In this document: piece by piece, positions 25,647 through 63,805 of the stretch
Layout: the number at the start of each line of letters is the position of its first letter
How positions within the stretch are numbered: the first letter of the stretch is position 1
Assembly (NCBI GenBank): GCA_047519465.1
Contig: JAPVTA010000102.1
Span: forward strand, 2,297 to 66,296
Direction of reading: 5' to 3'
Source: Thermodesulfobacteriota bacterium
GTDB lineage: Bacteria; Desulfobacterota; BSN033; UBA1163
DNA: 64,000 bases
The notes under the pieces: model-generated
Told to the model about the DNA's origin: nothing
What the model saw: only the letters and a program-made list of their open reading frames with translations
Database searches by the model: none
Made by a program: the position numbers and the translations under genes

Positions 25647-27179
25647 ATGTTAGCCAAGGTCTTGAGCAGTAGCGTTTTTGGAATCGATGCCTATGTGGTA
25701 GAAGTGGAGGTAGACATTGCCCAGGGCCTTCCTACCTTTGCAACTGTTGGGCTCCCTGAAGGTGCAGTCAAAGAATCCAAGGACAGGGTCAAGGCAGCCG
25801 TTAAGAACTGCGGCTATGACTTCCCCTCCCAGAGGATTACGGTCAACCTGGCGCCGGCGGATATCAAGAAGGAAGGAGCAGCTTTCGACCTCCCCATGGC
25901 CATTGGCATCCTGGCAGCCACCGAGGTGGTTCAAAAGGGCAAGCTGACCCATTATTTTATTTTAGGGGAGCTCTCCCTTGACGGACAGGTGAAGCCAATA
26001 AGAGGCACACTCCCCATTGCCGTCGCTGCAAGAGACGCGGGGTATCGAGGTCTCCTGCTCCCCAGGGACAATTCAAAAGAGGCGGCGGTAGTGAAAGGAA
26101 TTGAGATTCTTCCCCTCGATACCCTCTCCGATTGTGTTCAATTTTTGAACGAGAATCTCCGGATCAATCCAGTCGAGGTTGATCTGGACGAGATCTTTAG
26201 GACAGAGATGAATTATCCGGTTGATTTCAACGACGTGAAGGGCCAAGAGCATGTAAAGCGTTGCCTGGAAGTTGCGGCAGCGGGGGGGCACAATGTCATC
26301 ATGATCGGTCCTCCTGGCTCCGGAAAAACCATGCTGGCCAAGAGACTCCCCACGATCCTACCGGATATGAATTTTGAGGAAAGTCTTGAAACCACAAAAA
26401 TCCACAGCGTGATGGGTTTGATCCCACCCGATAGCTCCCTCATCGTGACCCGACCGTTTCGAAGCCCTCACCACACGATTTCCGATGCGGGCCTGATAGG
26501 AGGGGGACAGATCCCAAAACCCGGGGAGGTCAGCCTTTCTCACAACGGGGTTCTTTTCCTGGATGAACTACCCGAATTCAAAAAGAATGTCCTGGAGGTA
26601 ATGCGCCAACCCTTGGAAGAGGAGAGAGTGACCATCGCCCGAGCAGCCACCTCCCTCACCTACCCTGCCCGCTTCATGCTGGTGGCTGCCATGAACCCCT
26701 GTCCATGCGGTTATTACAGCGATCCCAACAATGAATGCACCTGCACGGTCCCGCAGATTCAGCGCTACCGATCCAAGATCTCCGGACCTTTGATGGACCG
26801 AATCGACATCCATATCGAGGTCCCCGCAGTCAAGTACCGGGACCTGGCAAGCCGCGAACCCGGCGAGCCCTCCAGGGAGATCAAGAAACGAATCGATTCC
26901 GCCAGAAAGACCCAGCTCAGTCGCTTCAAAGGGCTGAAGATTTATTGCAACGCCCAGATGACCAACCGCCATATCAAGAAGTTCTGTCAGATTGACGAGG
27001 CAAGCCAGAAATTGCTGGAATTGGCCATCGATAAATTCGGCCTGAGCGCCAGGGCCTATGCGAGGGTCCTCAAGGTCGCCCGCACCATTGCCGACCTGGA
27101 AGGCCAAGAGAGTATTCAGCCCGCCCACCTCTCCGAAGCGATTCAGTATAGAAGCCTGGATCGAAACCTGATCTCCTAA
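25647..27179 (+). CDS. comM: ComM/YifB-family Mg-chelatase-like AAA+ ATPase
   Basis: Lon-like N-domain, Walker A GPPGSGKT, ChlI/MCM-type core, C-terminal domain; 510 aa. Confidence 0.9.
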
Positions 27180-27264
27180 CGACAGAAGACTTGTCTCGGC
27201 CCATCAGACAATAAAGGGATTTTTGCGATGGCAGGAAGAGAGTTTCAGCACTATGGAGATTTTG

Positions 27265-28572
27265 TCAGCCTCTTCTCACGATGACCTTTCTTGGACCGGC
27301 AATCCATATACTGCAGCAGGCGATGCAAATACTTAGCATCGAAATGGCAAAATTAAGTTTATAGTTCCCAAACCTGTCAAACAAATATCCACCGAGCCAT
27401 GAACTTATAGCACCACCTACTCCGAAGCCAAAGGTAATAAAACCATAGATAGCACCAAAGTGTCGGCCTTGAAACAAATCGGTTGCAGCTCCTGTTACAG
27501 CAGGTATCATCAGTCCTGACCCTATCCCTACAAAGATGCCATAGGCATACAACAGCCAAGGATTCGTTGTGTCTTTAATTAAGAAAATGCAGAAGATCCC
27601 AATGAGCGAGAGAATGCATGACAGTGAATAGCCTCTCTCCCAGCCTATTCGATCATTGATGAATCCAAAGGCCTGGCCAATGGTTTGAGTAATGCCATAG
27701 AGGCTGAATATGGAAGCAGCAAAAATTGGACTGTAGCCCACATCTACAACATAGGCAACCTGATGGGCGAGTAAAAACGCAACAGCAACTCCGTGAAAAA
27801 AGAAAAAGCACGAAAAAAGTGCCCAGAGGCGATAGCTCCTCATGGCCCCGACCAAGGTCCACTCTTTTGATATCCACTCTTTATCGATTACTAATACAGA
27901 TGTGTCAGATTTTGATATTGTTATGGAATCGATGGCTCCTGCAGCATCCCCGTCAGGTAATAGGCCTTTATCCTTGGCTTCTGATCTTTGAAACAATGCT
28001 GCGAGAGGAAGGATGACTCCGATGATCATCGCTCCCATCAAATTATAAGTAAACCGCCATCCCACAATATTGATCAGATATTGAACAATAATGACCAGCA
28101 AAGAACCTGAGCCCAAACCACTTGATATAATCCCTAAAGCCGTGCCGCGTCTTCTCAAAAACCACCGAGTGACCACAGCGGCGTGAGGAACAAGACCCGA
28201 AAGGGAAACTCCCACAGCCCCGATGAAGCCCCAGAAAGCATAAAGGTGCCAGACTTTGTTGGCCTGGCTGCAAGCAAATGCCCCCAAGGCCAAAACGATA
28301 GCTCCTACTGAGATGATTTTCCGGGGACCGAATTGATCAATGAGCCACCCTGACAAAGGTGAAATCAGCCCGTAGGTAAAAATAAACAGTGAAAAAATTA
28401 ACGCAGTGCTAGCCCTACTCCAGCCAAATTCCTTTAGGATAGCGAGGTAGAAAACAGAAAAGGAAGATCTCGCTCCCCATACGAATGATAGGGAGATAAA
28501 CGAAATAACAACAATAATCCACCCGTAAAAAAATATGGGTCTTTTTATGCGGATAGTTCTCGCTCCTCTCAC
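27265..28572 (-). CDS. MFS transporter
   Basis: 12 predicted TM segments in a 6+6 arrangement with a central loop. Confidence 0.75.
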   Translation of the reverse strand: MRGARTIRIKRPIFFYGWIIVVISFISLSFVWGARSSFSVFYLAILKEFGWSRASTALIFSLFIFTYGLISPLSGWLIDQFGPRKIISVGAIVLALGAFACSQANKVWHLYAFWGFIGAVGVSLSGLVPHAAVVTRWFLRRRGTALGIISSGLGSGSLLVIIVQYLINIVGWRFTYNLMGAMIIGVILPLAALFQRSEAKDKGLLPDGDAAGAIDSITISKSDTSVLVIDKEWISKEWTLVGAMRSYRLWALFSCFFFFHGVAVAFLLAHQVAYVVDVGYSPIFAASIFSLYGITQTIGQAFGFINDRIGWERGYSLSCILSLIGIFCIFLIKDTTNPWLLYAYGIFVGIGSGLMIPAVTGAATDLFQGRHFGAIYGFITFGFGVGGAISSWLGGYLFDRFGNYKLNFAISMLSICIACCSIWIAGPRKVIVRRG

Positions 28573-28780
28573 CAGATCAGATTTCCAATGTTCTGCATGC
28601 TGCGCTGCTGAAATGATGCATCTTCGTCTTACTGCTTATCCTAAGGTGGCTGAATGTTAAACGACAAGAGATAGACAAGGATGAAGAAAATACCTAGATA
28701 AGAAAAGTTACAGTCTTTTGAAAAAATCTGGGTTGATCACCCACAAATGCCTTGAAATCCTTTAAGGAAGCACAAACTCC

Positions 28781-30538
28781 TCAAGGTTTCGGAATCCCTT
28801 CCGAACTCCAGCCTCTCAGATAATAATAATCCTGGAGCAACCTCTGAAAGTCGTCACGCTTAACGACTTTTCCCTCTTTGCCCAGGGGCTCGTCAAAAAA
28901 TCTTTTTGGTAGGTTATCATCTCTCGGGCCGATTCCTTCCCTGAGATTGAACTTTCTGGTCTCATTTTGGATATTTGACGAAATTCTCCTTAGTCCGGAT
29001 TCACCCAATTTGAGACCTGTGGTGACCTCCACAATCTTCGAAAGGGAATCCCACTCCCAGTAGAGGTCGCGGTAGAATCGACATATAATTAAGGCATCAT
29101 GGATGTTAAAGCGATCTTCATATTCAAGAAAAAGTTTAGCCTTTCCTTCCACTTGTTCGGGAGAAATTGTGCCTGAAAGTTCTGGCCTGAAGAACGTGCT
29201 CCTCAAATGGCATGCCCCTCGGTCCGACGTCGCATAGGCCAATCCCATTCCCTTTAGCACTCGCGGCTCGTATCCAGCAGGCTCCATCCCTTTAACATGA
29301 ATGGCAATATCCTCTAACCCCCAAGTTTTGGCCGCATTCCGTATCCCTTCCGCCAGAACGCCACCAATCCCCTTCTTAAAAGCAATTTGGTGAAGAAATT
29401 CAGCGATCTTATCCACATCCCCCCAAGAAATTTTTTCTTGGATCCGTCCTCGCCCTGATGCCTCAATGGCGAAGGCGCAAAGGTTTCCAGCTGAGATGGT
29501 ATCCATACCGAGGCGGTCACAAATATCGTTAAGGTAAACCACCTCTTCGATTTCGCGGACCATACAGAGACCACCGAACGCGTAGATTGTCTCGTATTCT
29601 GGGCCCTCGATCCTAAGTCCTTTGTGCTTCCCATTTTTAACTTGGCTCATTCTACCACACGCAATAAAACAGCGGCGACAGGCATTCGGTTTCACTCGAC
29701 AACGCTCAAGAAGGGACTCCCCGCTAATACTTTCCCAACCCTCAAATGTTCCAAGGCGCCAATATTTGGAAGGAAATGCTTCAACCGAATTCGTCATACT
29801 TACCAGTATGGGAGTACCCAATCTATTAAAATTTTTAACGAAGGCACTATCCCTCCCTCTTTCTAATATTCCCCTCGAAAACTGTCGCAAACTGTCTGGA
29901 TCAGCAAACTGACGCTTTTTACTCCCATAAAAGACCATCGCTTTAATCTTTTTTGAACCCATTACGGCCCCAACGCCTGTCCTTCCCAAAGACCGCCAGT
30001 AATCATTCTCTATCACTGCAAAACGAACAAGGTTCTCTCCAGCAGGACCGATCACCAGTGCCCCCGCCCCTTTGAAATTCGTCTTCTCCAGAACTTGATC
30101 TTCGGTCGAGTAGGTATCTTTCCCCCAAAGATCCTTGGCATCGTGGAACAGAACTTTTTCGTTGGAGATTTCGATCCATGTAGGTTCAATGGCTGCATCT
30201 TCAATAATAAAGGCATCATATCCGCACCGGCTCATCGGCTCTGCCAATTTACCACCCGCGTAGGATTCAGAGAAGCCCCCTGTCAGAGGGGATTTAGTAA
30301 AGACGCTGTGGCGACACGATCCGTAGACTTGGCTATCGGTTGTAGGCCCTAAACAAAGGATCAACTTATTCTGTGGCGAAAAGGGATCGACTCCCGATGG
30401 ATTTTCCTTCATTAATAGATGAATCCCAAGCCCCTTGCCGCCCAGACAGGTTTCATATATCGAATCAGGAATTGCTTCTTCTTGGAATTCCTTTTTCTCC
30501 AGATTGATCCTCAAAATTTTGTTGAAGAAACCCTTCAT
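28781..30538 (-). CDS. aor: Tungsten-type aldehyde:ferredoxin oxidoreductase (AOR family)
   Basis: AOR_N domain (MKGFFNKILRINL...CLGGKGLG) plus C-terminal AFOR domains with 4Fe-4S Cys ligands; 585 aa. Confidence 0.85.
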   Translation of the reverse strand: MKGFFNKILRINLEKKEFQEEAIPDSIYETCLGGKGLGIHLLMKENPSGVDPFSPQNKLILCLGPTTDSQVYGSCRHSVFTKSPLTGGFSESYAGGKLAEPMSRCGYDAFIIEDAAIEPTWIEISNEKVLFHDAKDLWGKDTYSTEDQVLEKTNFKGAGALVIGPAGENLVRFAVIENDYWRSLGRTGVGAVMGSKKIKAMVFYGSKKRQFADPDSLRQFSRGILERGRDSAFVKNFNRLGTPILVSMTNSVEAFPSKYWRLGTFEGWESISGESLLERCRVKPNACRRCFIACGRMSQVKNGKHKGLRIEGPEYETIYAFGGLCMVREIEEVVYLNDICDRLGMDTISAGNLCAFAIEASGRGRIQEKISWGDVDKIAEFLHQIAFKKGIGGVLAEGIRNAAKTWGLEDIAIHVKGMEPAGYEPRVLKGMGLAYATSDRGACHLRSTFFRPELSGTISPEQVEGKAKLFLEYEDRFNIHDALIICRFYRDLYWEWDSLSKIVEVTTGLKLGESGLRRISSNIQNETRKFNLREGIGPRDDNLPKRFFDEPLGKEGKVVKRDDFQRLLQDYYYLRGWSSEGIPKP

Positions 30539-30585
30539 TCATGTCCTCCTGTATTAAACCGTTTATTGAAAATGGGGATATGGGA

Positions 30586-31752
30586 TTAGAGGTCTCCAGC
30601 AAAGGCTTGTTTGTATAGTCTTTTAATATCGTCGACTGTGCTTCGACGAGGGTTGGTTTCCATGAGCCCTGTTCTTACTGCATCCTCAGCCATTGCCGAA
30701 ATCCCTTCTTCTTTGGCCCCTGTGTTCTTAAGCGTTGGAGATATTCCCAAGTCGGAGAGGAGGTTCGTAACTGCATAAACGGACTTCAACGCTTCCTCTC
30801 TCGATGTTAAGCCTTCTGTGTTTTCACCCAAAGCACGAGCGATCATGCCGAATTTCGTCGGCTTGACCAAACAGTTAAACTTCGTCACGTAGGGGAGAAG
30901 GACTGCATTGGCCAACCCATGGGGCAAATTATAGTGGCCCCCGAGAGGGTGGGACATGGCATGAACATTGCCAAGGCGGGCATTTGTGAAAGCTCCTCCT
31001 GCCATGGTGCAGGCTGCTTGCATGGCCATGGCCGCTTGGAGATTAGAAGGGTTAGCCGCAAAAAGCCGAAGGTTTTGGCCAACCAGCTCAATGGCCTTAT
31101 AAGACAAAGCGTCTGTGAAAAGGCTCGCCTTTATGGAAACGAAGGCCTCAATTGCATGGGTGAGTGTATCCATGCCGGTGGTTGCGGCCAACCAGGGAGG
31201 GGAGGAAGTCACCATGATCGGATCCAGGATCGCAAATCGCGGGAATAAAGCATAGCCTGAAATGATCATCTTAAAATTTCGTTTTGCGTCTGTGACGATT
31301 TGTCCTCGGGTGACTTCGCTTCCACTTCCAGTTGTAGTAGGAATTGCTATTAAGGGGAATGGCATATTGGAAAATTTGTTAAATCCTTCATAATCTATAA
31401 TCGAACCCGGGTTGGTCATCAGAAGCCCTACCGACTTTGCTGTATCGATGACGCTTCCGCCTCCAATGGCTATGATCATGTCGCAACGCTGATCCCGGCA
31501 GAAAGCCGTAGTCTTCTCAACGTTTTCGACCGTCGGATTAGGTTCAACATCCTTATAGACTGAAAATGGTATATCCTTTTCGAAAAGATTAGTGACAAGA
31601 GCGGGCAATCCTGCAAGATCTACTCCCCGGTCGGTGACAATCAGAACTTTTCGGCCGCCAAGGCTTTTAAGAACATCTGGAACCTGTTGAACGGCTCCTG
31701 GGCCTGAAATAATTCGCGTAGCAATCCCAAATTCAAACATATCCCCGTTCAT
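30586..31752 (-). CDS. Iron-containing alcohol dehydrogenase
   Basis: Fe-ADH fold motifs (GGGSVIDTAK, metal-binding His cluster); start set at ATG 8 nt after aaggagg. Confidence 0.85.
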   Translation of the reverse strand: MNGDMFEFGIATRIISGPGAVQQVPDVLKSLGGRKVLIVTDRGVDLAGLPALVTNLFEKDIPFSVYKDVEPNPTVENVEKTTAFCRDQRCDMIIAIGGGSVIDTAKSVGLLMTNPGSIIDYEGFNKFSNMPFPLIAIPTTTGSGSEVTRGQIVTDAKRNFKMIISGYALFPRFAILDPIMVTSSPPWLAATTGMDTLTHAIEAFVSIKASLFTDALSYKAIELVGQNLRLFAANPSNLQAAMAMQAACTMAGGAFTNARLGNVHAMSHPLGGHYNLPHGLANAVLLPYVTKFNCLVKPTKFGMIARALGENTEGLTSREEALKSVYAVTNLLSDLGISPTLKNTGAKEEGISAMAEDAVRTGLMETNPRRSTVDDIKRLYKQAFAGDL

Positions 31753-31874
31753 TACAAAACCTCCTTTTTGGCCGAACCTACTTAACGAATTCGCCTCCAT
31801 CCATGCCAATGATAGAACCTGTCACGAAATCACTTGCCGACGAAGCCGAAAATACCACAGGAGGACCGACCTCC

Positions 31875-33047
31875 TCATTCCCTCTCAACAAGCAGAGCTG
31901 TGGCCACTCCACCCATGCCACAAAGCGTAGCAAGTCCTCGTTTTGAATTACGCCGGATCATTTCGTGAATAAGGGTAACGACAATACGGGCTCCCGTGCA
32001 ACCCACCGGATGGCCCAGGGCAACCCCGCTCCCATTCACGTTGGTTCTTTCACGAGGCAAACCGAGAAGCTTCTCAACCGCCAGATATTGGGCAGCATCA
32101 ATTAGATTTAACGTCAACCCGGTCTTTCCAAGAATTTTTTGAACCGCTGGAACCGGACCGTAACCCATCAACTCTGCCTCCACACCTGCAACCGAGTAGG
32201 AGGCGATTCGAGCCATGGGCTTGATTCCGAGTTCTTTAACCTTCTTCTTCGACATGAGAATTAATGCAGCCGCCCCATCATTGATCCCACACGCGTTTCC
32301 TGCAGTGATGGTTCCTCCTTCTTTAAAAATAGGCGGAAGCTTAGCTAAATCATTCATGCTTAAGTTGGGTCGAGGATGCTCATCCGTATCAATGACTTTA
32401 GGAGGCCCCTTCTTTTGCGGGAGAGATACGGGAACGATTTCTTCCTTAAATCTTCCCTTAGCAATCGCATCGCAGGCATTTTGTTGACTCCGAAGAGCGA
32501 TCTCGTCTTGCTCTTGGCGGGAGATATCATATTTTTCTACAAGATTCTCTGCTGTACGACCCATCATCATTTTGGCAATCGCGCAGGTAAACCCTTCCCA
32601 AACTGTGTCGGACATGACCCCATGCTGAAGTCTCTGGCCCCAGCGTGCGGTCCGAAGCACATAAGGAGCCGAACTCATCGACTCCACTCCTCCAGCCATG
32701 ACCACCTCCGCATCCCCCAGGCGGATCATCTGAGCGCCGAAGATGATGGCGCGCATGGCAGAAGTGCAAACCTTATTGATCGTCACCCCTGGAACTTCTT
32801 TTGAGAATCCTGCCTTCATCGCCATCACCCTAGCGGTATTACACTGGTCCAACTGTTGGTGACATTCTCCCCAAACGATGTCCTCTACCCAGCTTTTCTC
32901 GATTCCTGCCCTTTTCACCGCTTCTTGAGCGACCACAACGGATAGGTCATCTGCTCTGACATCTCTAAGCCCTCCTCCAAATTCACCGATGGCTGTTCTA
33001 CAAGCACTCACAATATATACATCTCTTGAATCCGACTTTTCCATCAA
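31875..33047 (-). CDS. Acetyl-CoA C-acetyltransferase (thiolase II)
   Basis: Active-site Cys region (VNKVCTSAM), C-terminal GHPVGCTGAR and CGMGG motifs. Confidence 0.85.
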   Translation of the reverse strand: MMEKSDSRDVYIVSACRTAIGEFGGGLRDVRADDLSVVVAQEAVKRAGIEKSWVEDIVWGECHQQLDQCNTARVMAMKAGFSKEVPGVTINKVCTSAMRAIIFGAQMIRLGDAEVVMAGGVESMSSAPYVLRTARWGQRLQHGVMSDTVWEGFTCAIAKMMMGRTAENLVEKYDISRQEQDEIALRSQQNACDAIAKGRFKEEIVPVSLPQKKGPPKVIDTDEHPRPNLSMNDLAKLPPIFKEGGTITAGNACGINDGAAALILMSKKKVKELGIKPMARIASYSVAGVEAELMGYGPVPAVQKILGKTGLTLNLIDAAQYLAVEKLLGLPRERTNVNGSGVALGHPVGCTGARIVVTLIHEMIRRNSKRGLATLCGMGGVATALLVERE

Positions 33048-33095
33048 TTCGTCTCCTCCCCTGTTCTGAGTAGATTGCCTATGAATGGATCTATG

Positions 33096-34673
33096 CTACG
33101 CCTCTTCATACTTACCAAATAACTCCCTGATCTCCTTGAGCTGGATTCTTCCTGCCTCATCCTTTGGCAGGTTTTCAGCGAACTCGAAATATTTTGGAAC
33201 TTGAAATCTGGCAAGGTACCGTTGACAATGGGCTCTCAATTCCTCTTCGGTAACGGATGAGCCCCTTTTTAAACTGATAACGGCTTTAATCGCTTCTCCC
33301 CATTGCTCATGAGGGACTCCAATGACAACCGCTTCATTGATTCCGGGATGGAGCAAGAGGGTTTGCTCTATTTCGGTTGGGGATACCATAAACCCCCCTG
33401 TTTTGATCATAAAATCCTTCCTCCCCTTCAGATACAGATACCCGTCTTCATCGAAGATACCCATATCCTTCGTGTAGAGCCAGCCATTTTTGAATGTTTT
33501 CTTATTGAGCTCCGGATTATTCCAATATCCCGGCGAAACCGCATCTCCGCTGATGAGAACTTCCCCCAACTCTCCTGAAGGGACTTCTTCACCTTGGTCA
33601 TTCACAATCTTCACTTTTGTGCTCAACAAAGGCTTCCCAACAGACTGCAATCTTCTCTTCTCTTTCTCAGTAGCATTGGGACGAAGGCCTGCCTCGATCT
33701 CGTGGGGAAGAAGGCGGGTGCCCACGGCAACGGTTTCAGATAGGCCGTACATTTTTGCCGTATAGGAAACTCCGCAGAATTCCATGAGCTCCCGCAATTC
33801 TTTCTCAGAATGAGATTGTCCTGCTGTGGTGACTTTTCTTAGACTGCTCAGGTCATATTTCTTCCCGCTGGTTCTAACAAAATCCCATACAGGCGTCATC
33901 CTGGATTTTGTCGTAAGAATAACCGTCACCTTTTCTCTTTCGATCACTTCGCCACAGGTATTTCCCTTCAAAACATACATGATGACAGAGCAGCCAGCCA
34001 AGGCTGGAGCGATCAATTGCACCTGACCACCCACGCCGGCACAAAACGGAGCCGAAACCAGGGCAACATCGTCGTGTCCGAACTTTTCAGCAAAGAGGCA
34101 GGACTCGATACAGTAAGTAATTCTGTTTCTGTGTGTGGACAGAACACCTTTCGGCAGGCCGGTCGTACCACTTGAATAGGTGATCATCACCAGGTCATCT
34201 TCTTTAATATCAATTTCGGGTTCTGAAATTGGATATGGCTGAATAAAGGATTCGTATTCCATGCGAAAATTTTGTTGGCCAGAGAAACCGATGAAATGCT
34301 CTACTCCTTTTAATCGAGATGAGATGTCATGGACGAGTCTGGCAAATTGATCTTGAACAAAAAGAAGTTTAGGGGCGGCACTGTTGATGATTCCTTCCAA
34401 TTGTTTTTCATGGAGTCGATAATTTAACGGACAACCGATGGCACCTGTTTTTGCCACAGCAAATTGAAATTCAGCACATTGTGACGAATTCTCGGAAATC
34501 ATTCCCACCCTGTCGCCCTTCTTGATACCAAGACCGATCATGGCATTTGAAAGGCGATTCACTCGCTCATTAAACTCTTTCCAGGTGAATTTCACTCCGC
34601 TTTGAGCATCCACAATGCCAATCTTATCGGGGAAGACCCGGGCATTGCTAACAGCGATATCCCCTAAAACCAT
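33096..34673 (-). CDS. AMP-dependent acyl/aryl-CoA ligase
   Basis: AMP-binding motif YSSGTTGLPKG and downstream adenylation motifs; 525 aa. Confidence 0.85.
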   Translation of the reverse strand: MVLGDIAVSNARVFPDKIGIVDAQSGVKFTWKEFNERVNRLSNAMIGLGIKKGDRVGMISENSSQCAEFQFAVAKTGAIGCPLNYRLHEKQLEGIINSAAPKLLFVQDQFARLVHDISSRLKGVEHFIGFSGQQNFRMEYESFIQPYPISEPEIDIKEDDLVMITYSSGTTGLPKGVLSTHRNRITYCIESCLFAEKFGHDDVALVSAPFCAGVGGQVQLIAPALAGCSVIMYVLKGNTCGEVIEREKVTVILTTKSRMTPVWDFVRTSGKKYDLSSLRKVTTAGQSHSEKELRELMEFCGVSYTAKMYGLSETVAVGTRLLPHEIEAGLRPNATEKEKRRLQSVGKPLLSTKVKIVNDQGEEVPSGELGEVLISGDAVSPGYWNNPELNKKTFKNGWLYTKDMGIFDEDGYLYLKGRKDFMIKTGGFMVSPTEIEQTLLLHPGINEAVVIGVPHEQWGEAIKAVISLKRGSSVTEEELRAHCQRYLARFQVPKYFEFAENLPKDEAGRIQLKEIRELFGKYEEA

Positions 34674-55261: not shown

Positions 55262-55430
55262 TGCCCGCAAATCCCGCCTATTAGGCGGGGGCAAGTCGAT
55301 TAGACCCGACCACGGGGGGCACAATATAAATGAAATTTACTTGGCTCACATTCTGTTCGCCACTTCGTGTCCGGGAAGTCCCGCCGTGCCTGCCCCGTCC
55401 TAACGGGGTGGGCGGGGCTTCATTATGTGG
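55262..55430 (-). repeat. Composite intergenic repeat (family C), copy upstream of the livF-like gene
   Basis: gcctattaggcggg hairpin, gtcgattagacccgaccacggggggcaca, and the reverse complement of the 12732-12800 element. Confidence 0.75.
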
Positions 55431-56196
55431 TCGATTGATCCATCTCGCTTTTGCCCCAGTAGCATTCTCTCACTTTAGCGTCATAGAGCACATGGTCAGG
55501 ATCTCCTTCACAGATAAAATTGCCCTCATTCATGACGCAGAGGCGGTCCACAAGGTTTACGATCTTCGATACCTTGTGCTCAATGATGACCAACGTAAGG
55601 TTCTTTTTGATCTCTTGAAGGAGACCGAGAACCTCTGAAATCTCTCCATCACTGAGTCCGGACAGAGGTTCATCTAAGAGGAGAAGTTTTGGGTTAAGCG
55701 AGAGGGCAATTCCAATTTCAAGCATTCTTTTCGATCCATAAGGAAGCTCGGAGGTAATGGTGAAGGCTTTGTTTTGAAGTCCGACCAATTTCATCGCCTT
55801 CGCACAGTCTTCTAAGACATCTTCATTCTTTGCCGATGAGAAAAAGAACTTCCGTAGGGAGGTATACTTCTCCTTGAATCGAATGCTGGAGAGGACAAGA
55901 TTTTCCCAAACGGTCATTGAGTTAAATACAGAGACGAGCTGAAACGTCCGGACCATCCCTTTTATGACTCTTTGGTATGGAGGAATGTCAGTGATCTCAT
56001 CACCTAAGAAAGTGATGCGTCCCTCCGTGGGAGGGAAAAAACCTGATACCAGGTTAAAGAGGGTCGTCTTTCCCGATCCATTTGGCCCGATGATGCCAGT
56101 CGTCTCATTCTTCTTAATTATAAAATTCACCTTTTTGACGGCGATGAGGCCGCCAAAATGTTTACTGAGCCCCTCTGCTGAAAGAATTTCTGTCAT
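55423..56196 (-). CDS. ABC transporter ATP-binding protein (LivG-like)
   Basis: Walker A GPNGSGKTT, signature LSGLSDGE region, Walker B LLLLDEP; start set at the ATG (MTEIL). Confidence 0.8.
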   Translation of the reverse strand: MTEILSAEGLSKHFGGLIAVKKVNFIIKKNETTGIIGPNGSGKTTLFNLVSGFFPPTEGRITFLGDEITDIPPYQRVIKGMVRTFQLVSVFNSMTVWENLVLSSIRFKEKYTSLRKFFFSSAKNEDVLEDCAKAMKLVGLQNKAFTITSELPYGSKRMLEIGIALSLNPKLLLLDEPLSGLSDGEISEVLGLLQEIKKNLTLVIIEHKVSKIVNLVDRLCVMNEGNFICEGDPDHVLYDAKVRECYWGKSEMDQSTT

Positions 56197-56266
56197 TGAC
56201 CCTCTTTTCTGCTTTGGCTGAAGCAAAGAGGAGGAGGTTTAAAACCTCCTCCTCTTTGAATGTGTT

Positions 56267-57511
56267 TTACTTCCAGCCCATCTCCTTCAGGGGCAGGCAC
56301 AATTCTTCGCCCGTATAAACATCGACCACCTTGGCAAAATCCCATTTATCTTTTCTTTCCGCGGGCGATTTGCCGTCTACGATGAATTTGGCGTATTTGT
56401 ATGACGGCCTTCCGTCGATGCGCCATTTAGCCGGTCCCTTGACGCTCATGAAATCGGGTTTATCCATGATAGCCTTATAGACTTTGCTTGGCTCAAGAGA
56501 ATTCGCGAGTTCAACGCCCCTAAGGGTTTGTTGCATACCCAAATAGGCGAATACCGCAAACGGATCTGGGGGCTCACCATACTCTTTCTTCCAAGCCTCG
56601 GACAGGCTTGCCACAGCCTTGACTGTCTCCGGATCCTTGAGACCAGTGAGATCATGATACCACCACATCCCCATCGTAACCCCTTCGAGGGCCTCAGGTG
56701 GAATACCAACAGCCTGAGCGTTGATAATTGAGTTGAAGAAAACCTTTGTGTCTTTCTTTAACCCTAGCTCATGGACCTGTTTCAAGGCGTTGATGGTGTC
56801 CGCACCCCAGTGCCCCATCATCACGACATCGGGCTTTAGCTCTTTTATCTTGATGATGTATGAGGTGTAGTCGGGAGTCCCCACCGGAGACCAGACCTCG
56901 GTAATCTTGATATGAGAGTACTTCGTGCTGAAGATCTTATTAGCCCCTTTCGCCGCACCCCGGCCATAAGCATAATCGGGCAGAAAGAGAACGACGTGCT
57001 TTGGCTTATAGGTTTTACTTACATAGTCTGCACACATTCTTCCTATTCCATCGACAGCACCGAGTGGAGAGATGTAGTAGAGTGCCTTGGTATCCTTACG
57101 AAAAATACTTTCCTCAACACCATTGGTTGCCATAAATAACGCCTGGCCTCCTTTAATCTGCTCATTAATGGCTTGGCTCACATGAGCGAATGTTCCGCCA
57201 ACAACAAGTAAGACCTTATCTTCGTTCAATTCCCGGAACCTTCGGGCGCCCACATCCGGTTTGGTCTCATCATCACGGGTCACTGCCTCCACCTTGACTC
57301 TCTTTCCCTCCAGCATCACACCCCCTTGGTCGTTCACCTGTTTAATTGCTAATTTGACACCATCCAGTTGAACCTTTCCAACGGGAGAGCCTGCACCCGT
57401 CATGCTGTACATTACTCCAATCTTGACCTGTGCGAAAGAGGGGCTATTCGAAAAACAGAAAAAAAGGCCAACTACACCGACGATACAAAAGAACTTAACA
57501 TCCTTTTCCAT
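56267..57511 (-). CDS. ABC transporter periplasmic substrate-binding protein (Peripla_BP_6)
   Basis: Signal peptide followed by the periplasmic binding fold; first gene of the operon. Confidence 0.75.
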   Translation of the reverse strand: MEKDVKFFCIVGVVGLFFCFSNSPSFAQVKIGVMYSMTGAGSPVGKVQLDGVKLAIKQVNDQGGVMLEGKRVKVEAVTRDDETKPDVGARRFRELNEDKVLLVVGGTFAHVSQAINEQIKGGQALFMATNGVEESIFRKDTKALYYISPLGAVDGIGRMCADYVSKTYKPKHVVLFLPDYAYGRGAAKGANKIFSTKYSHIKITEVWSPVGTPDYTSYIIKIKELKPDVVMMGHWGADTINALKQVHELGLKKDTKVFFNSIINAQAVGIPPEALEGVTMGMWWYHDLTGLKDPETVKAVASLSEAWKKEYGEPPDPFAVFAYLGMQQTLRGVELANSLEPSKVYKAIMDKPDFMSVKGPAKWRIDGRPSYKYAKFIVDGKSPAERKDKWDFAKVVDVYTGEELCLPLKEMGWK

Positions 57512-57645
57512 TGGACTCCTCCTTTCTTTATTCAATCATCACAGCATGATGATTGAATGAATGAATTGAACCAATAACTTTTCTCCGTCACGCCTCCTTT
57601 CTTCTTAATCCCTCCTTCTAAACGACTTTCACCCCTGATTCATTA

Positions 57646-58080
57646 CTAACACTGTCTGATGCGGAAATAACCCTTTTCGTCCGTATAACGTTCCGTCTTG
57701 ACTCCTTCCAGAACTGTTAGACTGATTTCAGCTCGATAGGCTACTATACTTCCCGGTTCCAAATGTCCGATATAAACAGTTTTGCTGTCCCAATCATACA
57801 CACTGATGTGGGCATGAGCATCACCACCAATGACTGAGCCTTGAACACTTGCCAGTTCGATGGGGCCAGTGAAGTTCCAGTACTTTTCTCCCACTTGAAC
57901 GCTGGTAGTGGTAATGGTATGGAGATGCACTCGCTGCAAAGAACCGATCCCGCCCGTGATCGCAGCGGTATCGATCTGCTCCTTCTTCACCACCTCCTGT
58001 AATCCTTCAAGGAGAAAGTCATCCCTGTCAAACATTATCAGAATAGTCCTTGGGGTGGTTTTAGACACGAAATATTGCAT
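57646..58080 (-). CDS. PPC (DUF296) domain protein
   Basis: ITGGIGSL motif and beta-rich fold typical of the PCC/DUF296 domain. Confidence 0.5.
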   Translation of the reverse strand: MQYFVSKTTPRTILIMFDRDDFLLEGLQEVVKKEQIDTAAITGGIGSLQRVHLHTITTTSVQVGEKYWNFTGPIELASVQGSVIGGDAHAHISVYDWDSKTVYIGHLEPGSIVAYRAEISLTVLEGVKTERYTDEKGYFRIRQC

Positions 58081-58147
58081 TAGATTTCCTCCTTCCGTAT
58101 GAACCCATCTCGATCAGAACAATTCTTCCCAGAACACAGATATTCCA

Positions 58148-59332
58148 TCACCCTTCATCTTGATACTTGATCCTACCGCAGGAGATCACTGTCTTAACTC
58201 TTTTCAGTGCCCCAATATCATCCGCGGGATTCCCTTTTACCCCGATGATATCGGTGCATTTGCCTGGTTCAAGAGTTCCGATGCTCTCTTCAAGCCCACA
58301 AACCCGAGCAGCATGGCAAGTGGCCGCCATTAAGGCCTGGATCGGTGTTGCCCCAAAATCCACCAGATATTGAATTTCTTGGGCCAGGCCTCCGTGCATG
58401 CCATCGGTTCCAACAGCGAATTTCACGCCAGCCTTGATTGCAGCTTTCATCCGCTGGCCTACCTCATCTCGCTGCCGCAAATGACCATCGATGAGGCCCG
58501 TGGGGAGAGTCTGAACCCGAGCATCGGTAAAGAAGATACTCGGCGTCATCACCAGCCAGCTATCCGATTTTGCCAGTAAATCAATTTCTCTGTCAGTCAA
58601 GAAATAGCCATGCTCAATTGTATCGATGCCCGTTTCAAGAGCCCACTCCAGACCAACGCCGCCAATACAGTGAGTGGCCACGGGTATACCGACTCGGTGA
58701 GCTTCATCCACAGCAGTCTGAATCTCTTCTATAGAAAAATAGCTGGGAACCCCTCTGGGACCACGGAGGGTTCCAGTGATATAAATTTTGATCAGGTCCG
58801 CTCCGGCTGAAATGTTTTCCCTTACTGCGGTTCGAATCTGTTCAACACCGCCAAAGGGATACCCCACAAAACCATGGCCGTGGAAGGCACGGATGCCTCT
58901 GGTAGCTATGAGAAGGCGAGGCCCCTCGATGCGCCCTTCTGAAACTGCCTTTTTGCATTCCGCATCAAGAAAGCCCTTGTCACCCAAACAGCGTGAAGTG
59001 GTGACACCGGATCGAAGATCAATTTTCATGGTCTCGCATGCGCGCAAGGTCAAGGCGGGAACAGGATCAGCCATTCGATATAGATAATTTTCAAGTCTTG
59101 GGTCAAGAGAAAGGTGATTGTGGCAATCGATCAATCCAGGAAGAAGCGTCTGATCACCGCAGTCCAACGCATGGATATTCGCCTCTCCTTTGAACTCCTC
59201 TTCCCTTCCGACCCTGAGGATACGTTCACCTTCGACAAGAACGGCTCCTCTATCAATCGGTGGATTCCCCATGCCATCGATCACTAACCTTCCTTTAATG
59301 AGGATCCTCTTTCCCCTCTCCCCTGCTTCCAT
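58148..59332 (-). CDS. Metal-dependent amidohydrolase
   Basis: HxH metal motif (CHNHLSLD) and downstream His/Asp ligands of the amidohydrolase_1 fold. Confidence 0.75.
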   Translation of the reverse strand: MEAGERGKRILIKGRLVIDGMGNPPIDRGAVLVEGERILRVGREEEFKGEANIHALDCGDQTLLPGLIDCHNHLSLDPRLENYLYRMADPVPALTLRACETMKIDLRSGVTTSRCLGDKGFLDAECKKAVSEGRIEGPRLLIATRGIRAFHGHGFVGYPFGGVEQIRTAVRENISAGADLIKIYITGTLRGPRGVPSYFSIEEIQTAVDEAHRVGIPVATHCIGGVGLEWALETGIDTIEHGYFLTDREIDLLAKSDSWLVMTPSIFFTDARVQTLPTGLIDGHLRQRDEVGQRMKAAIKAGVKFAVGTDGMHGGLAQEIQYLVDFGATPIQALMAATCHAARVCGLEESIGTLEPGKCTDIIGVKGNPADDIGALKRVKTVISCGRIKYQDEG

Positions 59333-59379
59333 TCTCCTCCAACGCCTCCCTGAGGTCCTTGGGCTGCCCAAAGGTTTTG

Positions 59380-60261
59380 CTAAGTTTTTAGATTCGTCAT
59401 TGTCTCAAGGACTTTAATCAGTTCGTGGACTTCAGCGTTTTCCATCCCTAAGGAAAGAGCCGAGAGGTAATATTGGTAGGCAGCAGAGGCCACAATTAAA
59501 GGGGTCCTCACCCTCCTACTATCATTAATCACCAGCCCGATGTCTTTGCACATCTGACCCAGCCCCCCAACTGCCGGAGTATTCTCGAGTATACTGGATG
59601 TAATGAGCCTGAACCAATCACTTCCGGAAATACCACTTCCCACAACCTTGCAGACCAGCATTGGGTCCAACCCTTGTTTTTTAGCCAAGGTAATTACTTC
59701 AATAGTAGCTGCAAGGGTGGTGGCCACAAGGAGCTGGTTACAATGTTTAACCAGTTGTGCTAATCCAGGTTTTTCACCCACATAGGTGATTTTACCCTGC
59801 ACTTCAAGAAGAGCCCGGCATTTCTCTATGAGTCCTTTATCCCCTGCCGCGATAATGGTCAATGTCCCAGCCTCTATTCTCGGAGGTCCACCTGTCACAG
59901 GTGCGTCTATAAATCCTACCCCTTTTGCTGCACACTGTTCAGCTACCCATTCCAGATTCTCTTTATCGATAGTGGACATGCAGATGACCCTTGCATCTTT
60001 ATTGGATCCATTGAGGATGCCATCCGTACCGGTCACCACCTGAATGACCTGTTGGTCGTTTAAAACATAGACGATGACCTTTCCAGCCTTTTCCGCCACT
60101 TCTCTACTATTTCTCAACGCAGTCCCACCGGCTTTTGTAAATTCTCGAATCACCTCAGGTCTCCGAGCATATCCGAATACATTGTAACCTTCTTTGATAT
60201 ACTTTTTTGCGGCCACCATTCCCATTCGCCCTAAGCCGATGACTCCTATCGTTTCAGGCAT
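59380..60261 (-). CDS. NAD(P)-dependent 3-hydroxyisobutyrate/6-phosphogluconate-dehydrogenase-like oxidoreductase
   Basis: N-terminal Rossmann IGVIGLGRMGMVAAKK; 293 aa, HIBADH family size. Confidence 0.8.
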   Translation of the reverse strand: MPETIGVIGLGRMGMVAAKKYIKEGYNVFGYARRPEVIREFTKAGGTALRNSREVAEKAGKVIVYVLNDQQVIQVVTGTDGILNGSNKDARVICMSTIDKENLEWVAEQCAAKGVGFIDAPVTGGPPRIEAGTLTIIAAGDKGLIEKCRALLEVQGKITYVGEKPGLAQLVKHCNQLLVATTLAATIEVITLAKKQGLDPMLVCKVVGSGISGSDWFRLITSSILENTPAVGGLGQMCKDIGLVINDSRRVRTPLIVASAAYQYYLSALSLGMENAEVHELIKVLETMTNLKT

Positions 60262-60294
60262 CTCTACCTCCTCAGTTGAAATAAAAATTCATAA

Positions 60295-60909
60295 TCATTG
60301 GGTCATCTTTTTTAATAATTTCGCTGCCCGATGAGGGTTAAACGCTCCACACAAACAAGGCTTCGCCAGCTCGACGGCCGCCTTCCCGATGGTGATTTTT
60401 TTCTTCTTGACGTCCTCCACCATTTTCTTGACGAGAATACCGGAAACCAGCCCATGACCGCACATGGTGACGAAGTCAAGGATCTCGGGCGGCCATATCT
60501 TTTCTGTATTGCCGTGAATCCCCAATGCGAACTCAATCAGCGGCGGGTTAATCCCAGCCTTCTTGCAACAATCAAAAACTTCATCAAACAAACCTGAGAC
60601 CACGACCGAAATCCCGATATTTTTTTCTCTTAATTCTTTCATGCATGCAATGAGGTTCTTCTTATCCTTAAATACCACCTGCCAACCCACGGTGTGTTTC
60701 TCCATGATCTCTTTGGGAGGCATCATAAATTGGTTAGCAACTTTACAGTCCCCAAAATTTAGATCCGTGTATTTTCTCGCAATCTCGGCCATCTGTTTTA
60801 AACGCTCTCCAGCACCGATATCATTATATCCTCTTGCCACATGGGTCAGCATTGGAAAATCTTCTTTGAAGCTCTCGATGTCTCCTGTACGATGCAGTGT
60901 ATGTGTCAT
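60295..60909 (-). CDS. Hypothetical conserved protein
   Basis: 204-aa ORF with coding-like composition, co-oriented with neighbours; no motif recognised. Confidence 0.4.
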   Translation of the reverse strand: MTHTLHRTGDIESFKEDFPMLTHVARGYNDIGAGERLKQMAEIARKYTDLNFGDCKVANQFMMPPKEIMEKHTVGWQVVFKDKKNLIACMKELREKNIGISVVVSGLFDEVFDCCKKAGINPPLIEFALGIHGNTEKIWPPEILDFVTMCGHGLVSGILVKKMVEDVKKKKITIGKAAVELAKPCLCGAFNPHRAAKLLKKMTQ

Positions 60910-60926
60910 CAGACCTTCTTCAATTC

Positions 60927-61793
60927 TTATTTGTTCAAGACTCTTCCCAGTCCCAGGTTCACTTTTCCGTTAGGATAAACGGGAAATCCCAATTGTTTTG
61001 CGATTTCAAGCGCTGGGCCCTTCTCTCTCTCCTCCGGGAATGAGATCAGATCAACAGAGAAAACAGTCTCCACCTTCGCAGAAACGTCCTTCAGTGATTG
61101 AAGAACTCCTTTAAGCTGGTTGGGTTTCACTTCGAACTCAATAATGGCAGAGAGAACCCTTTCGTCCTTCAGCTCCGGTTTGAGCCTTCCAGTTTTCACA
61201 TCCTCAAACAAAAATGTCACCGGGTTCCTGGGCTCAAAGACAATCCCTTTCTTGGCCAGAACCAGGGCGATTGTTTCAAGGTCTTTTAACCTTGCCCCAA
61301 CTCCAGGACGGCCAACCTCAACCGCCATTCCCCAGGAGCCCCGTTTAAAACGGCCAGTGACCTCATTGGTTTTCATCTCCTCCGTCCCCCTGCCAGGGAC
61401 TCCGGTCTCCTTGTGCTCTACCATTGGGTCGCTAAAGGCTCGACGCACTACCCTCGGCCAACTAAGTTCCGGAAGATAAATGGCCTGAGGTTTACACACT
61501 TGAGCTCTGAAGCAAACGCCACACTCTACACACTCTTCCTCATCAATCCTTGATTTCTTTTTCTTCGGATTTTGTTTCTCCTGAAAGAGCTGAATCGCTC
61601 CAACAGGGCAGTAACTTACGCATCGCCCGCATCCCACACACCTATCTATGTCAATACGCACTTGAAACCTTTCCTCTTCGTCCCAACCCACTTCAACCGG
61701 GCAAGGGCGATATCTGTTTGAAATTGACCGGAATGTTCCCCGCAAGCCCTGCCCTGCAGCTGCCTGCCAGTAGGCACGGGCGGGGCGCTTCAC
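60927..61793 (-). CDS. 4Fe-4S dicluster-domain protein with an uncharacterised C-terminal domain
   Basis: CVGCGRCVSYCP and CVECGVCFRAQVC ferredoxin motifs. Confidence 0.6.
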   Translation of the reverse strand: MKRPARAYWQAAAGQGLRGTFRSISNRYRPCPVEVGWDEEERFQVRIDIDRCVGCGRCVSYCPVGAIQLFQEKQNPKKKKSRIDEEECVECGVCFRAQVCKPQAIYLPELSWPRVVRRAFSDPMVEHKETGVPGRGTEEMKTNEVTGRFKRGSWGMAVEVGRPGVGARLKDLETIALVLAKKGIVFEPRNPVTFLFEDVKTGRLKPELKDERVLSAIIEFEVKPNQLKGVLQSLKDVSAKVETVFSVDLISFPEEREKGPALEIAKQLGFPVYPNGKVNLGLGRVLNK

Positions 61794-61800
61794 AATGGTG

Positions 61801-62646
61801 CTATCTTTTCAGGGCAGCCATCAGCTTCGGAAGCTCTCCCTCAACCATGTTGTATGTATGCTGAGCTTCCGGGAACCGACCGGCCCGCACATCGTTGGCA
61901 TAAGCCTCAAAGGCCTTCAGAGTCTCTCCAGCCAGATCAGCATATTTTTTTACAAATTTGGCTGTGAAGGCCTGAAAGATTCCAAGGATATCGCTGACGA
62001 TCATAAGCTGGCCGTCTGCTTCGATCCCGGCACCAATACTGTACACCGGAATGGTCAATTTATCCCGTATGATCTTGCAGACCTCCGGCGGAACAGCCTC
62101 CACCAAGAGGGAAAAAGCCCCTGCTTTTTCGACGGCCTTCGCATCCTCGATCAGTTCGAGGGCAGTCTCTACTGTTCGGCCCTGTGCCTTGAACCCTCCC
62201 AACTGGCCCGAACTCTGAGGTGTTAGACCAATGTGACCCATGACTAACATTCCAGCATCTACAATCGCCCTGATTTGGGGACAAACCCTCCGGCCTCCTT
62301 CCAGCTTGATTGCATCGACTCGAGCTTCTTTGAAAAACCGGCCAGCGTTGCGGACCGCCTCATCAATGTTGACCTGATAGGACAAAAAAGGCATGTCACC
62401 GATAACAAAGGTGTTGGGTGCGCCACGGCGTACGGCTTCCGAATGGTAGATACACTGGTCCATAGTAACAGGGATGGTTCCCTCATAACCATAGATGCAC
62501 ATCCCAAGAGAGTCTCCCACCAGGATCATGTCCATGCCTGATTTTTCTACAAACTGGGCGGTCCAGTAGTCATATGCAGTGATCCAAACTGCTTTCTTTC
62601 TTGACAGCTTCATTTCCTGAAGATCGAAACGCGTTAGCTTCCTCAT
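61801..62646 (-). CDS. panB: 3-methyl-2-oxobutanoate hydroxymethyltransferase-like (PanB / PEP-mutase-ICL superfamily)
   Basis: VWITAYDYWTAQFVEKSGMDMILVGDSLGM is typical of PanB. Confidence 0.7.
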   Translation of the reverse strand: MRKLTRFDLQEMKLSRKKAVWITAYDYWTAQFVEKSGMDMILVGDSLGMCIYGYEGTIPVTMDQCIYHSEAVRRGAPNTFVIGDMPFLSYQVNIDEAVRNAGRFFKEARVDAIKLEGGRRVCPQIRAIVDAGMLVMGHIGLTPQSSGQLGGFKAQGRTVETALELIEDAKAVEKAGAFSLLVEAVPPEVCKIIRDKLTIPVYSIGAGIEADGQLMIVSDILGIFQAFTAKFVKKYADLAGETLKAFEAYANDVRAGRFPEAQHTYNMVEGELPKLMAALKR

Positions 62647-62723
62647 GTGTCTTCACCTCTCATGATTCAGTCGCTTGGCCTTCCTTTTAGGAAGGCGCCA
62701 TGTCTCTTAATACCCTTCTCCTT

Positions 62724-63503
62724 TTATCTTACCCTCTGGTCCTGATCGCGATAGTACTCTTGAATCGCCCTTTGAACGTCTGAAATGTGCTTCTCCATTT
62801 GAGAGATCGCCTTTGAGCGGCTTCTATCTTTAACGGCTTGATAGATATTCTGGTGGAATTTGAAAGATCGCTTCAGCATATAGGGCAAGAGATGAAAGGA
62901 TTCCCGCATATATTGTTCCATGAAACCCCGGATGGTCACGAAGAGGTTGACGAGGAAGCGGTTATGAGAAGCCTTGGCAATCAAGAAGTGGAAGGCGACA
63001 TCCTGTTCGATGTAGTCATCAATCCTTCCTTCTTTGATCGACCGGGTCATCTCCTTAATCAGAAGCCCCATCTCATTGATCTGTTCGGGGCTCGCGTTTT
63101 TTACAGATAACCCCGCTGTTCCGGTTTCTATGAATCGCCTCGCCTCGATCAGTTCAATGGAAGCCTGTTTATCCGATATGAGGGGAGGCGCCAGATGGTC
63201 GGTGAAGAGGGCAGGGATACGGGAACGGAGGACCGTGCCGTAACCAGGCCGCTGTTCGAAGACTCCGATGCGGGTCAAGGTACTTAAAGCCTCTCTGAGA
63301 GAGGTGCGGCTCACGCCCAGCTGGGCCGCGAACACGTTCTGATTGGGCACCTTATCGCCCTCTTTGAGTTCGCCGCTCTGTATCATCCGTTTGATCTCCT
63401 CGATCACGGAGTCGGCCAGCTTCTTCTTGTTGATCGGCGCCACGGGGTCCTCCAATTTGTATGATGATGTTACTTTCTTACCAGAGCACAATTTTCTTGT
63501 CAA
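62724..63503 (-). CDS. GntR/FadR-family transcriptional regulator (FCD domain)
   Basis: wHTH AAQLGVSRTSLREAL plus a C-terminal FCD-like helical domain. Confidence 0.75.
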   Translation of the reverse strand: MTRKLCSGKKVTSSYKLEDPVAPINKKKLADSVIEEIKRMIQSGELKEGDKVPNQNVFAAQLGVSRTSLREALSTLTRIGVFEQRPGYGTVLRSRIPALFTDHLAPPLISDKQASIELIEARRFIETGTAGLSVKNASPEQINEMGLLIKEMTRSIKEGRIDDYIEQDVAFHFLIAKASHNRFLVNLFVTIRGFMEQYMRESFHLLPYMLKRSFKFHQNIYQAVKDRSRSKAISQMEKHISDVQRAIQEYYRDQDQRVR

Positions 63504-63712
63504 GGGGAAAAATATCGAGATTTTTCTCCCATTAGGTTATTTGTCCATTACTTCGATGAGACTTCTTTTCTGTCTACGAGGATTGAAAGCGTTGAACCTT
63601 GCGGGCGAAAATCTAAGAAATCGTTTGGGATTCCGTCCCAATGATTTCTCAATTTTGGCCCTCGTTGAGGTGAAACAAGGAAAACAGAAGGAAGCCAAGG
63701 CAATGCCTAGAT

Positions 63713-63795
63713 GGGCAACCGCTATATCAAGAAGTTCTGTCAGATTGACGAGGCGATCCAATACCGCAGTCTGGATCGAAACCTCATCTCCTGAT
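63713..63795 (+). repeat. Degenerate, internally deleted copy of the comM 3' end (copy 3)
   Basis: ccgctatatcaagaagttctgtcagattgacgagg (like 26965-27000) is fused to cgatccaataccgcagtctggatcgaaacctcatctcctga (like 27139-27179), an in-frame 138-bp deletion. Confidence 0.8.
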
Positions 63796-63805
63796 CGTCG
63801 CTCTT

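Follow-up and report, generated by a model that had tools for sequence, protein, structure and literature searches.

Tandem accessory segments between repeated comM 3' ends in an uncultured Thermodesulfobacteriota bacterium: a probable accretion array with no recombinase encoded nearby

Downstream of an intact comM (yifB) gene in a Thermodesulfobacteriota bacterium (GenBank assembly GCA_047519465.1, contig JAPVTA010000102.1, forward-strand positions 2,297 to 66,296), the 3' end of that gene recurs in direct orientation and separates a row of metabolic and other accessory segments. The window is this whole stretch of 64,000 nucleotides (nt), counted from its first letter. Together with an overlapping contig that extends the locus to 72.6 kb, it contains the comM 3' end in five direct copies, along with four or more segments, in the order comM-c1, island A, c2, segment B, c3, a sixA-like gene, c3b, an ARPP-1 gene with vapBC, and c4. 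The reading that we favor, with a probability of about 0.65, is that the comM 3' end is a hotspot at which recombinase-less islands of site-specific origin, resembling cis-mobilizable elements (CIMEs), accreted successively. We call them CIME-like because no segment encodes a recombinase.

The extension was taken from the NCBI metagenome-assembled genome (MAG) GCA_047519545.1 (contig JAPVSZ010000265.1, locus L001), retrieved by an exact look-up of the PanB-like protein of the window. It is 100% identical to window positions 51801-64000 (12,200 nt) and adds 8,646 nt past the window end. Positions on the joined sequence (1-72,646) are given as window-equivalent coordinates. The target gene and its copies are as follows.

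25647-27179, + strand: comM/yifB gene, intact, 510 amino acids (aa), Pfam ChlI, Mg_chelatase and Mg_chelatase_C
26947-27237, + strand: copy c1, the functional comM 3' end with about 58 nt of post-stop sequence, template for all repeats (profile match 26880-27236)
42436-42581, + strand: copy c2, comM from -113 to the stop codon with about 30 nt of post-stop sequence, a 5'-truncated pseudo-end (profile E 2e-38)
63699-63796, + strand: copy c3, comM from -233 to the stop codon with an internal deletion, 83-89% identical to c1 (profile E 4.5e-14 and 2e-9)
window-equivalent 64297-64380, + strand: copy c3b, decayed (profile E 6e-8)
window-equivalent 66557-66745, + strand: copy c4, 78% identical to comM over 184 nt (profile E 1e-40)

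The comM gene is collinear with its relatives through the stop codon, and the target gene is therefore reconstituted and intact; its product is 97-98% identical to proteins P0001-P0008. The length of 510 aa is counted from the ATG used here; in relatives the called gene begins farther upstream and has 558 aa. When the 72.6 kb were searched with a nucleotide profile of the comM 3' region, exactly five copies emerged, all on the + strand and all downstream of comM, and every copy holds the stop codon and 20-58 nt of post-stop sequence. In the window, a 40-nt core was matched twice against 0.00 matches expected by chance, and a 14-nt core, with at most one mismatch, three times against 0.05 expected. 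A marginal sixth profile match (window-equivalent 71921-72054, E 0.2) lies inside a coding gene and was taken as chance. A preliminary description, made from the letters of the window, had proposed three same-strand direct copies delimiting two islands. Its copies near 42436 and 63.7 kb, the latter diverged and internally deleted, are both real, and all are in-register comM 3' ends; the count was too low, since the profile search gives five copies and at least four segments. A generic repeat, which that description had considered, did not emerge in the 72.6 kb, where copies stand only behind comM.

The closest pair is c1 and c2, in which 42438-42565 matches 27069-27196 over 128 nt at 95% without gaps; there is one mismatch in 113 coding nt, the stop codons are TAA versus TGA, and the similarity falls sharply past the stop. 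The post-stop stretch of c1 is homologous to native DNA downstream of comM in a sister species (L166 3794-4088; L numbers denote compared loci). Copy c3 is built of two matching blocks, 63700-63760 against 26947-27007 at 89% and 63749-63795 against 27134-27180 at 83%, and represents the last ~233 nt of comM minus 138 nt (46 codons, in frame) deleted at a CGAGGC/CGAAGC microhomology. Divergence grows with distance from comM, from c2 (95%, 128 nt) through c3 (83-89%) to c4 (78%, 184 nt); for c3b the sole clean estimate is 76% identity over 83 nt to the copy of the sister species in locus L082. The CAATACCGCAGC-type allele of the sister species is present in c3, c3b and c4, and a different one, CAGTATAGAAGC, in both c1 and c2; c3b and c4 are moreover nearer to sister-species sequences than to c1. 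This gradient and the alleles fit an order in which newer insertions beside comM push older ones outward, as in other accretion arrays. The alleles would also be compatible, more weakly, with a present comM terminus that is itself an imported replacement end.

Open reading frames (ORFs) called through the pseudo-ends (window 42143-42520 and 63343-63807, both on the + strand, and L001 5942-6124) are spurious, and the public MAG lists c4 as a Mg_chelatase_C protein of 60 aa. These fragments are pseudogene pieces and should stay out of gene calls. Behind the stop codon, a motif AGAAGAyTTGTCT-N10-AGACAAtAAAGGGAG with a 6-bp inverted repeat (window 27180-27215) is kept in most copies, with equivalent stretches in c2, c3b, c4 and L166. 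The inverted repeat TTGTCT-N10-AGACAA was considered as a structured attachment site (att) or terminator and dropped, since its folding is of ordinary stability (z-scores of -0.9 to +1.3).

The sister species, in which comM is 97-98% identical in aa and ~90% in nt to the window, keeps the upstream synteny CarD, CysS, TPR, comM, and its contigs are 97-98.5% identical in nt among themselves over comM and upstream. Three of these contigs (L166, L167 and L185) have an empty site, where comM runs straight into native downstream DNA, the same sequence that stands after the fragment in L082. The L082 contig itself holds comM, ~80 nt, vapB, vapC and one comM fragment, without islands A and B, sixA or ARPP-1. 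Its positions 11759-12688 align to window-equivalent 65778-66744 at 84.6%, and the junction of vapC with the comM fragment is identical in the two species. The fifth sister-species contig, L165, has different downstream content again, and among relatives farther off (comM 91-94% aa) the genes that follow comM differ from one to the next. No genome with A and without B, or with B and without A, was found among the relatives compared. By this comparison the comM 3' locus is a synteny breakpoint with presence/absence polymorphism at the repeats. Empty sites in relatives had been anticipated in the preliminary description, and so had a direct succession of comM and the sixA-like gene in island-free relatives; the latter is wrong, and the sixA-like gene lies inside the array, between c3 and c3b. 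The sister species came from a large protein collection, and a metagenome scan gave at least one close relative among the matches listed. GTDB species representatives (comM at most 74% aa, no downstream synteny) were unusable as empty-site controls.

Two further variable points adjoin the gene. A second hotspot of the sister species lies about 150 nt past comM (L082 12779, L166 4072, L167 2431, L185 11424, L165 2095 and 3097). The sequence there is common to all five contigs up to GAGAACCGTCCCCGAAT and continues into four different right flanks, one of them shared by L166 and L167, and L165 adds a fifth right flank beyond its second copy of the motif. The same contig has the 120-130 nt on the left side of this point duplicated (84%) around a cold-shock (CSD) gene, which repeats the signature of flank duplication found at comM. 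On the other side, the cysS-comM spacer (window 21969-25175, - strand) varies among relatives; the window has a TPR protein of 1068 aa there, L082 has split TPR ORFs, L168 a ROK-family gene, and L083 both a vapBC pair and a Liv importer.

The segments between the copies are the following.

27238-42435, - strand for all genes: island A, 15.2 kb (Pfam)
42582-63698, both strands: segment B, 21.1 kb, composite (Pfam)
42759-48003, + strand: operon of DUF362, Fer4, YdhV-like aldehyde:ferredoxin oxidoreductase (AOR) and cytochrome b genes, in segment B, which also holds two small ORFs (Pfam)
49262-63514, - strand: block of iron-containing alcohol dehydrogenase (Fe-ADH), AOR, Liv importer, PCC, amidohydrolase, HIBADH-like, Fer4, PanB-like and GntR genes, in segment B (Pfam)
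63804-64259, - strand, crossing the window end at 64000: SixA-like histidine phosphatase gene (Pfam His_Phos_1)
window-equivalent 64416-65420, - strand: ARPP-1 gene (Pfam ARPP-1)
window-equivalent 65801-66118, + strand: vapB (L001 gene table)
window-equivalent 66111-66506, + strand: vapC/PIN (Pfam PIN on the L082 orthologue)
after c4: metallo-beta-lactamase-fold, radical SAM/SPASM and ETF genes (L001 gene table)

Island A is a discrete, rare and compositionally deviant unit. It encodes an MFS transporter, an AOR, an Fe-ADH, a thiolase, an acyl-CoA synthetase, an acyl-CoA dehydrogenase, a five-gene Liv-type ABC importer, a glyoxalase-family protein and a TetR regulator. Its GC content at third codon positions (GC3) is 0.48, versus 0.60 in the upstream core genes, and the Jensen-Shannon divergence (JSD) of its codon usage is 0.025, above the null maximum of 0.018 from the core. 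The TetR protein has one homologue at 93% identity, all remaining homologues being at 73% or below. The locus that carries this homologue, L176 (GCA_040961595.1), matches island A at 90.6-93.5% nt identity, and the homology stops at exactly 42436, which is the same right boundary. In L176 the island is followed by 57 unrelated nt and then by a truncated comM fragment that starts at -258.

Segment B is of a different character. Its DUF362-to-cytochrome b operon (42759-47993) is present in relatives L178-L180 at 76% nt identity at another locus, flanked by LeuA_dimer/CstA on one side and aminotransferase, CoA-transferase and POR genes on the other. The GntR-to-Liv block (63514-52903) is likewise found at another locus in relatives L181-L184 (91/85/76% nt identity), where it adjoins a response regulator, an ADP-forming acyl-CoA synthetase and an SLT gene, and no comM fragment lies near it in those relatives. 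Codon usage of segment B is mildly off the core, with the middle part within the core noise range. Judged by these alignments, segment B is a mosaic of clade-typical operons between comM pseudo-ends, which may have been relocated or gained as second copies. The compositional contrast suggested in the preliminary description thus applies to island A and not to segment B, which is not obviously foreign.

A PHROGs search of the ORFs of unknown function gave nothing significant, its sole match being a weak one (E 1.6e-4) of the SixA-like protein to a family of unknown function. Upstream, at window 4145-4806 on the - strand, a second VapB/VapC (PIN) pair stands beside CreD and a two-component system; it has no relation to the array.

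Similar scars occur in distant lineages. In L020, L092 and L121, whose ComM proteins are 59-66% identical in aa, 5'-truncated comM 3' fragments stand 1.5-4 kb downstream of the gene, behind small inserts free of recombinases.

L092: comM 3022-3068, fragment 4522-4568; the insert encodes an AAA_14/DUF4143 ATPase, a candidate defense protein (PADLOC PDC-S01)
L020: comM 11150-11541, fragment 13509-13692; the insert has two ORFs without a family match, and the fragment has an internal deletion, as c3 does
L121: comM 11062-11522, fragments 14717-14920 and 15155-15625; the insert encodes a C69 peptidase, and both fragments begin at comM residue 355

PDC-S01 in the L092 insert was the sole PADLOC match. 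In a self-repeat survey of 162 loci, 10 of the 45 direct-repeat pairs involved the comM 3' region, which makes up ~4% of the surveyed sequence. At the same locus in L024 (Candidatus Aerophobetes), a different kind of rearrangement is seen: positions 152-353, 703-757 and 1758-1856, that is, sequence upstream of comM and in the middle of comM, are repeated at 3960-4342, ~2 kb downstream of the gene.

The anatomy of the array is well accounted for by Campbell-type integration of circles that bear a copy of the comM 3' end, because an intact target is followed by ordered, same-strand, 5'-truncated copies, each with a stop codon. An incoming circular segment would carry its own comM 3' end and recombine with the resident end. 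Integration would leave comM intact and displace the previous end downstream as a 5'-truncated pseudo-end, and repetition of this process would build the accretion array from comM-c1 to c4. A site-specific recombinase, acting in trans or lost since, most likely formed the joints in the first place. The repeats of 110-260 nt are by now good RecA substrates as well, permitting precise loss and re-gain. Four points speak for a site-specific recombinase: islands are documented at comM, two species have the same junction of vapC with the fragment, comM 3' repeats are over-represented, and integrases with protein-gene targets typically come with replacement 3' ends of 100-200 nt.

Several observations weigh against successive accretion by a site-specific enzyme. 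In the 72.6 kb, neither Pfam on all major ORFs nor seed searches revealed a recombinase of the tyrosine or serine type, a transposase, a relaxase or a transfer gene, and no recombinase was found next to comM in ~180 loci. The seeds (XerD, lambda Int and gamma-delta resolvase) have limited sensitivity; they matched three housekeeping XerD-like genes only, in distant loci. The 5' starts of the comM fragments vary (-113, -142, -233, -258 and about -52), the region common to all copies being only the surroundings of the stop codon, and a single integrase with one core site gives no explanation for these differing 5' boundaries. The coding part of c1 and c2 is 99% identical, yet identity directly past the stop is just ~64-73%, so that an extra assumption is needed, be it an att identity block or gene conversion. 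Compared with the sister species, identity is 82-87% in the last 113 nt of comM and 90% in the rest of the gene; this end is only weakly more diverged than the rest, and as a sign of a foreign replacement end the comparison is no more than suggestive. Finally, the segment B operons are clade-typical and stand at other loci in relatives, and B may be relocated native DNA rather than an acquired element.

Other traces of mobility were sought in the same sequence. The intergenic gaps in the 72.6 kb are too small for a hidden recombinase remnant. There are no decayed modules from integrative and conjugative elements (ICEs) or integrative and mobilizable elements (IMEs), and no partner element with a matching integrase, in window-equivalent 1-72,646. 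A recombinase just outside the window, as the preliminary description had suggested, is absent from the 8.6 kb beyond it, and none was found upstream. Neither terminal inverted repeats nor short direct ones mark the ends of the islands, and a transposon reading was rejected on that ground. The window contains no tRNA genes and no Rfam match at gathering thresholds. Viral contigs scanned for the comM 3' core gave no match, and tblastn of the ComM C-terminus against phage records returned full-length comM on unverified 'Bacteriophage sp.' scaffolds only, with no attP-like fragments.

A dispersed intergenic repeat of 60-110 nt with the core GGGGCACAATATAAATGAAA is found in this genome and in related species, partly mosaic and in both orientations. 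Its sites are window 12739-12804 (- strand), 16580-16690, 50512-50617 and 55282-55378, window-equivalent 65552-65696 (L001 6951-7095), L085 524-638 and L165 19-108, and they include sites inside the Liv and AOR/ADH operons. It looks like a repetitive extragenic palindrome (REP) or miniature inverted-repeat transposable element (MITE) and is unrelated to the comM fragments.

The alternative that survives best, although we regard it as rather unlikely, dispenses with a dedicated enzyme and attributes the array to RecA only. Illegitimate or repeat-mediated excision would give circles with a comM 3' piece and its neighbors, which would enter comM by a single crossover and later be reshuffled, lost and regained. 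That recombinases are absent from the array, and likewise from the distant lineages that bear such a scar, agrees with this, as do repeats (113 to >470 nt) well over the RecA requirement and the heterogeneous 5' truncation points, which illegitimate excision predicts. So do the precise presence and absence of vapBC within one species, with c1 and c2 there at 97-98.5% identity, and the second sister-species breakpoint 150 nt past comM, with the same flank duplication around the CSD gene. Yet RecA acting by itself leaves the choice of comM in several phyla unaccounted for, unless such patterns are general and comM was simply the sole gene examined, and it requires transfer of circular double-stranded DNA between cells. 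The identical vapC-comM fragment junction in two species fits a site borne by the element, but would fit simple inheritance too.

An origin within the genome, by which the comM pieces would be scars of segmental duplication or translocation and native operons, especially those of B, would have moved to comM with no horizontal acquisition, is in our judgment very improbable. It draws on the B operon homologues at other loci in relatives (76-91% nt) and on the codon usage of the middle of B, which lies within core noise. Against it stand island A, rare and compositionally foreign, the ordered same-strand 5'-truncated copies with a stop codon, which are the signature of integration at a gene end, and the empty and intermediate sites of the sister species. 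That the fragments are a generic dispersed (REP-like) repeat or a chimeric metagenome-assembly join is barely credible and largely refuted, for although the window comes from a metagenome-type assembly and the lineage has an unrelated dispersed intergenic repeat, the copies in the 72.6 kb lie only downstream of comM, all oriented alike and in register with comM, an NCBI assembly made independently agrees at 100% across c3 and runs on through c3b and c4, its contig spans c2 by coordinates, and L176 and L082 reproduce the A/fragment and the vapBC/fragment junctions, respectively.

Accretion of CIME-like islands at the comM 3' end therefore remains the reading that we favor. The interpretation of the preliminary description as integrative elements is partly supported: its gene-end repeats, empty sites and discrete island A stand, a site-specific as opposed to a homologous mechanism is not established, and it was largely right in kind while mistaken on copy number, native neighbor, the foreignness of B and a recombinase beyond the window.

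Among known systems, the closest description is that of the tandem ssrA islands of Dehalococcoides, some of which have no integration module and were read as cis-mobilizable and fixed by accretion (McMurdie et al. 2011; PMC3146451). There, too, metabolic islands stand in a row behind one single-copy gene with direct repeats of its 3' end, and they are strain-hypervariable. Those islands differ in that the target is a tmRNA gene, the repeat is a uniform 20 bp and many islands have a serine-recombinase (DsiB) module beside attL, whereas here the target is protein-coding, the repeats are 80-290 nt with differing 5' ends and no segment has a recombinase. The CIME model of site-specific accretion (Pavlovic 2004; Bellanger 2011; reviewed in PMC5704250) is also close. 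As in CIMEs, attL/attR-like repeats are kept, integration and transfer genes are absent, the elements are in tandem at the 3' end of the target, and newer elements are beside the intact gene; unlike the segments here, CIMEs are recognizably decayed ICEs or IMEs beside a functional element with a matching integrase. Tycheposons of Prochlorococcus integrate successively at the same site and push older elements deeper into the island (bioRxiv 10.1101/2020.12.28.424599). They share with the present array scattered partial copies of the target gene in the island and metabolic cargo, and differ in their mostly tRNA-gene targets, tyrosine recombinases and replication modules.

Prophages e14 and phage 21 at icd, and SGI1 and mobilizable genomic islands (MGIs) at trmE/yicC, integrate into the 3' end of a protein gene and bring a replacement for that end along. 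As at comM here, the target stays functional and the displaced end is a pseudo-fragment of roughly 100-200 nt; unlike here, these elements encode their own tyrosine integrase beside att. Tn7-like islands of the AbaR/Tn6022 type target comM itself in Acinetobacter. Such AbaR-type transposons disrupt comM and carry both transposition genes and terminal repeats, whereas comM is intact here and neither feature was found; an island of this type is excluded by the intact comM, the lack of a transposase by Pfam and the lack of terminal inverted repeats. The 95-kb island iMGE6 at comM in Acidithiobacillus ferrooxidans has Int and RitABC (PMC10322971), and so shares the target gene but carries recombinases. 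The array is a clear and fairly ordinary case of a known mode of genome growth, unusual only in that no recombinase is encoded nearby.

For the organism, the array means that an uncultured Syntrophales-like lineage of Thermodesulfobacteriota gathers ~40 kb of accessory metabolism at one chromosomal address. This metabolism comprises three tungsten-type AOR genes, two Fe-ADH genes, two Liv-type importers and a beta-oxidation-like set. The cargo of island A is a module for alcohol/aldehyde/acyl-CoA oxidation and uptake, B carries AOR, ADH and Liv modules, and the distal segments carry a phosphatase, ARPP-1 and VapBC. The comM 3' pseudo-ends are a concrete marker for the limits of the flexible region in MAGs of this clade. 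Segments free of recombinases, together with the same scar in unrelated lineages, raise the question whether such segments are mobilized in trans or by host homologous recombination alone. An unlikely, bolder possibility is that the comM 3' end is a landing pad across phyla, with cargo gained and lost without a recombinase encoded by the element. It is equally doubtful that the sole determinant of mobility would then be the borrowed piece of the target gene, on which host homologous recombination or a host site-specific system acts. The cargo found so far at such sites consists of metabolic operons, a toxin-antitoxin pair, a candidate defense ATPase and a peptidase, and, if the landing pad were real, these cassettes would be a minimal, previously unclassified mobile unit.

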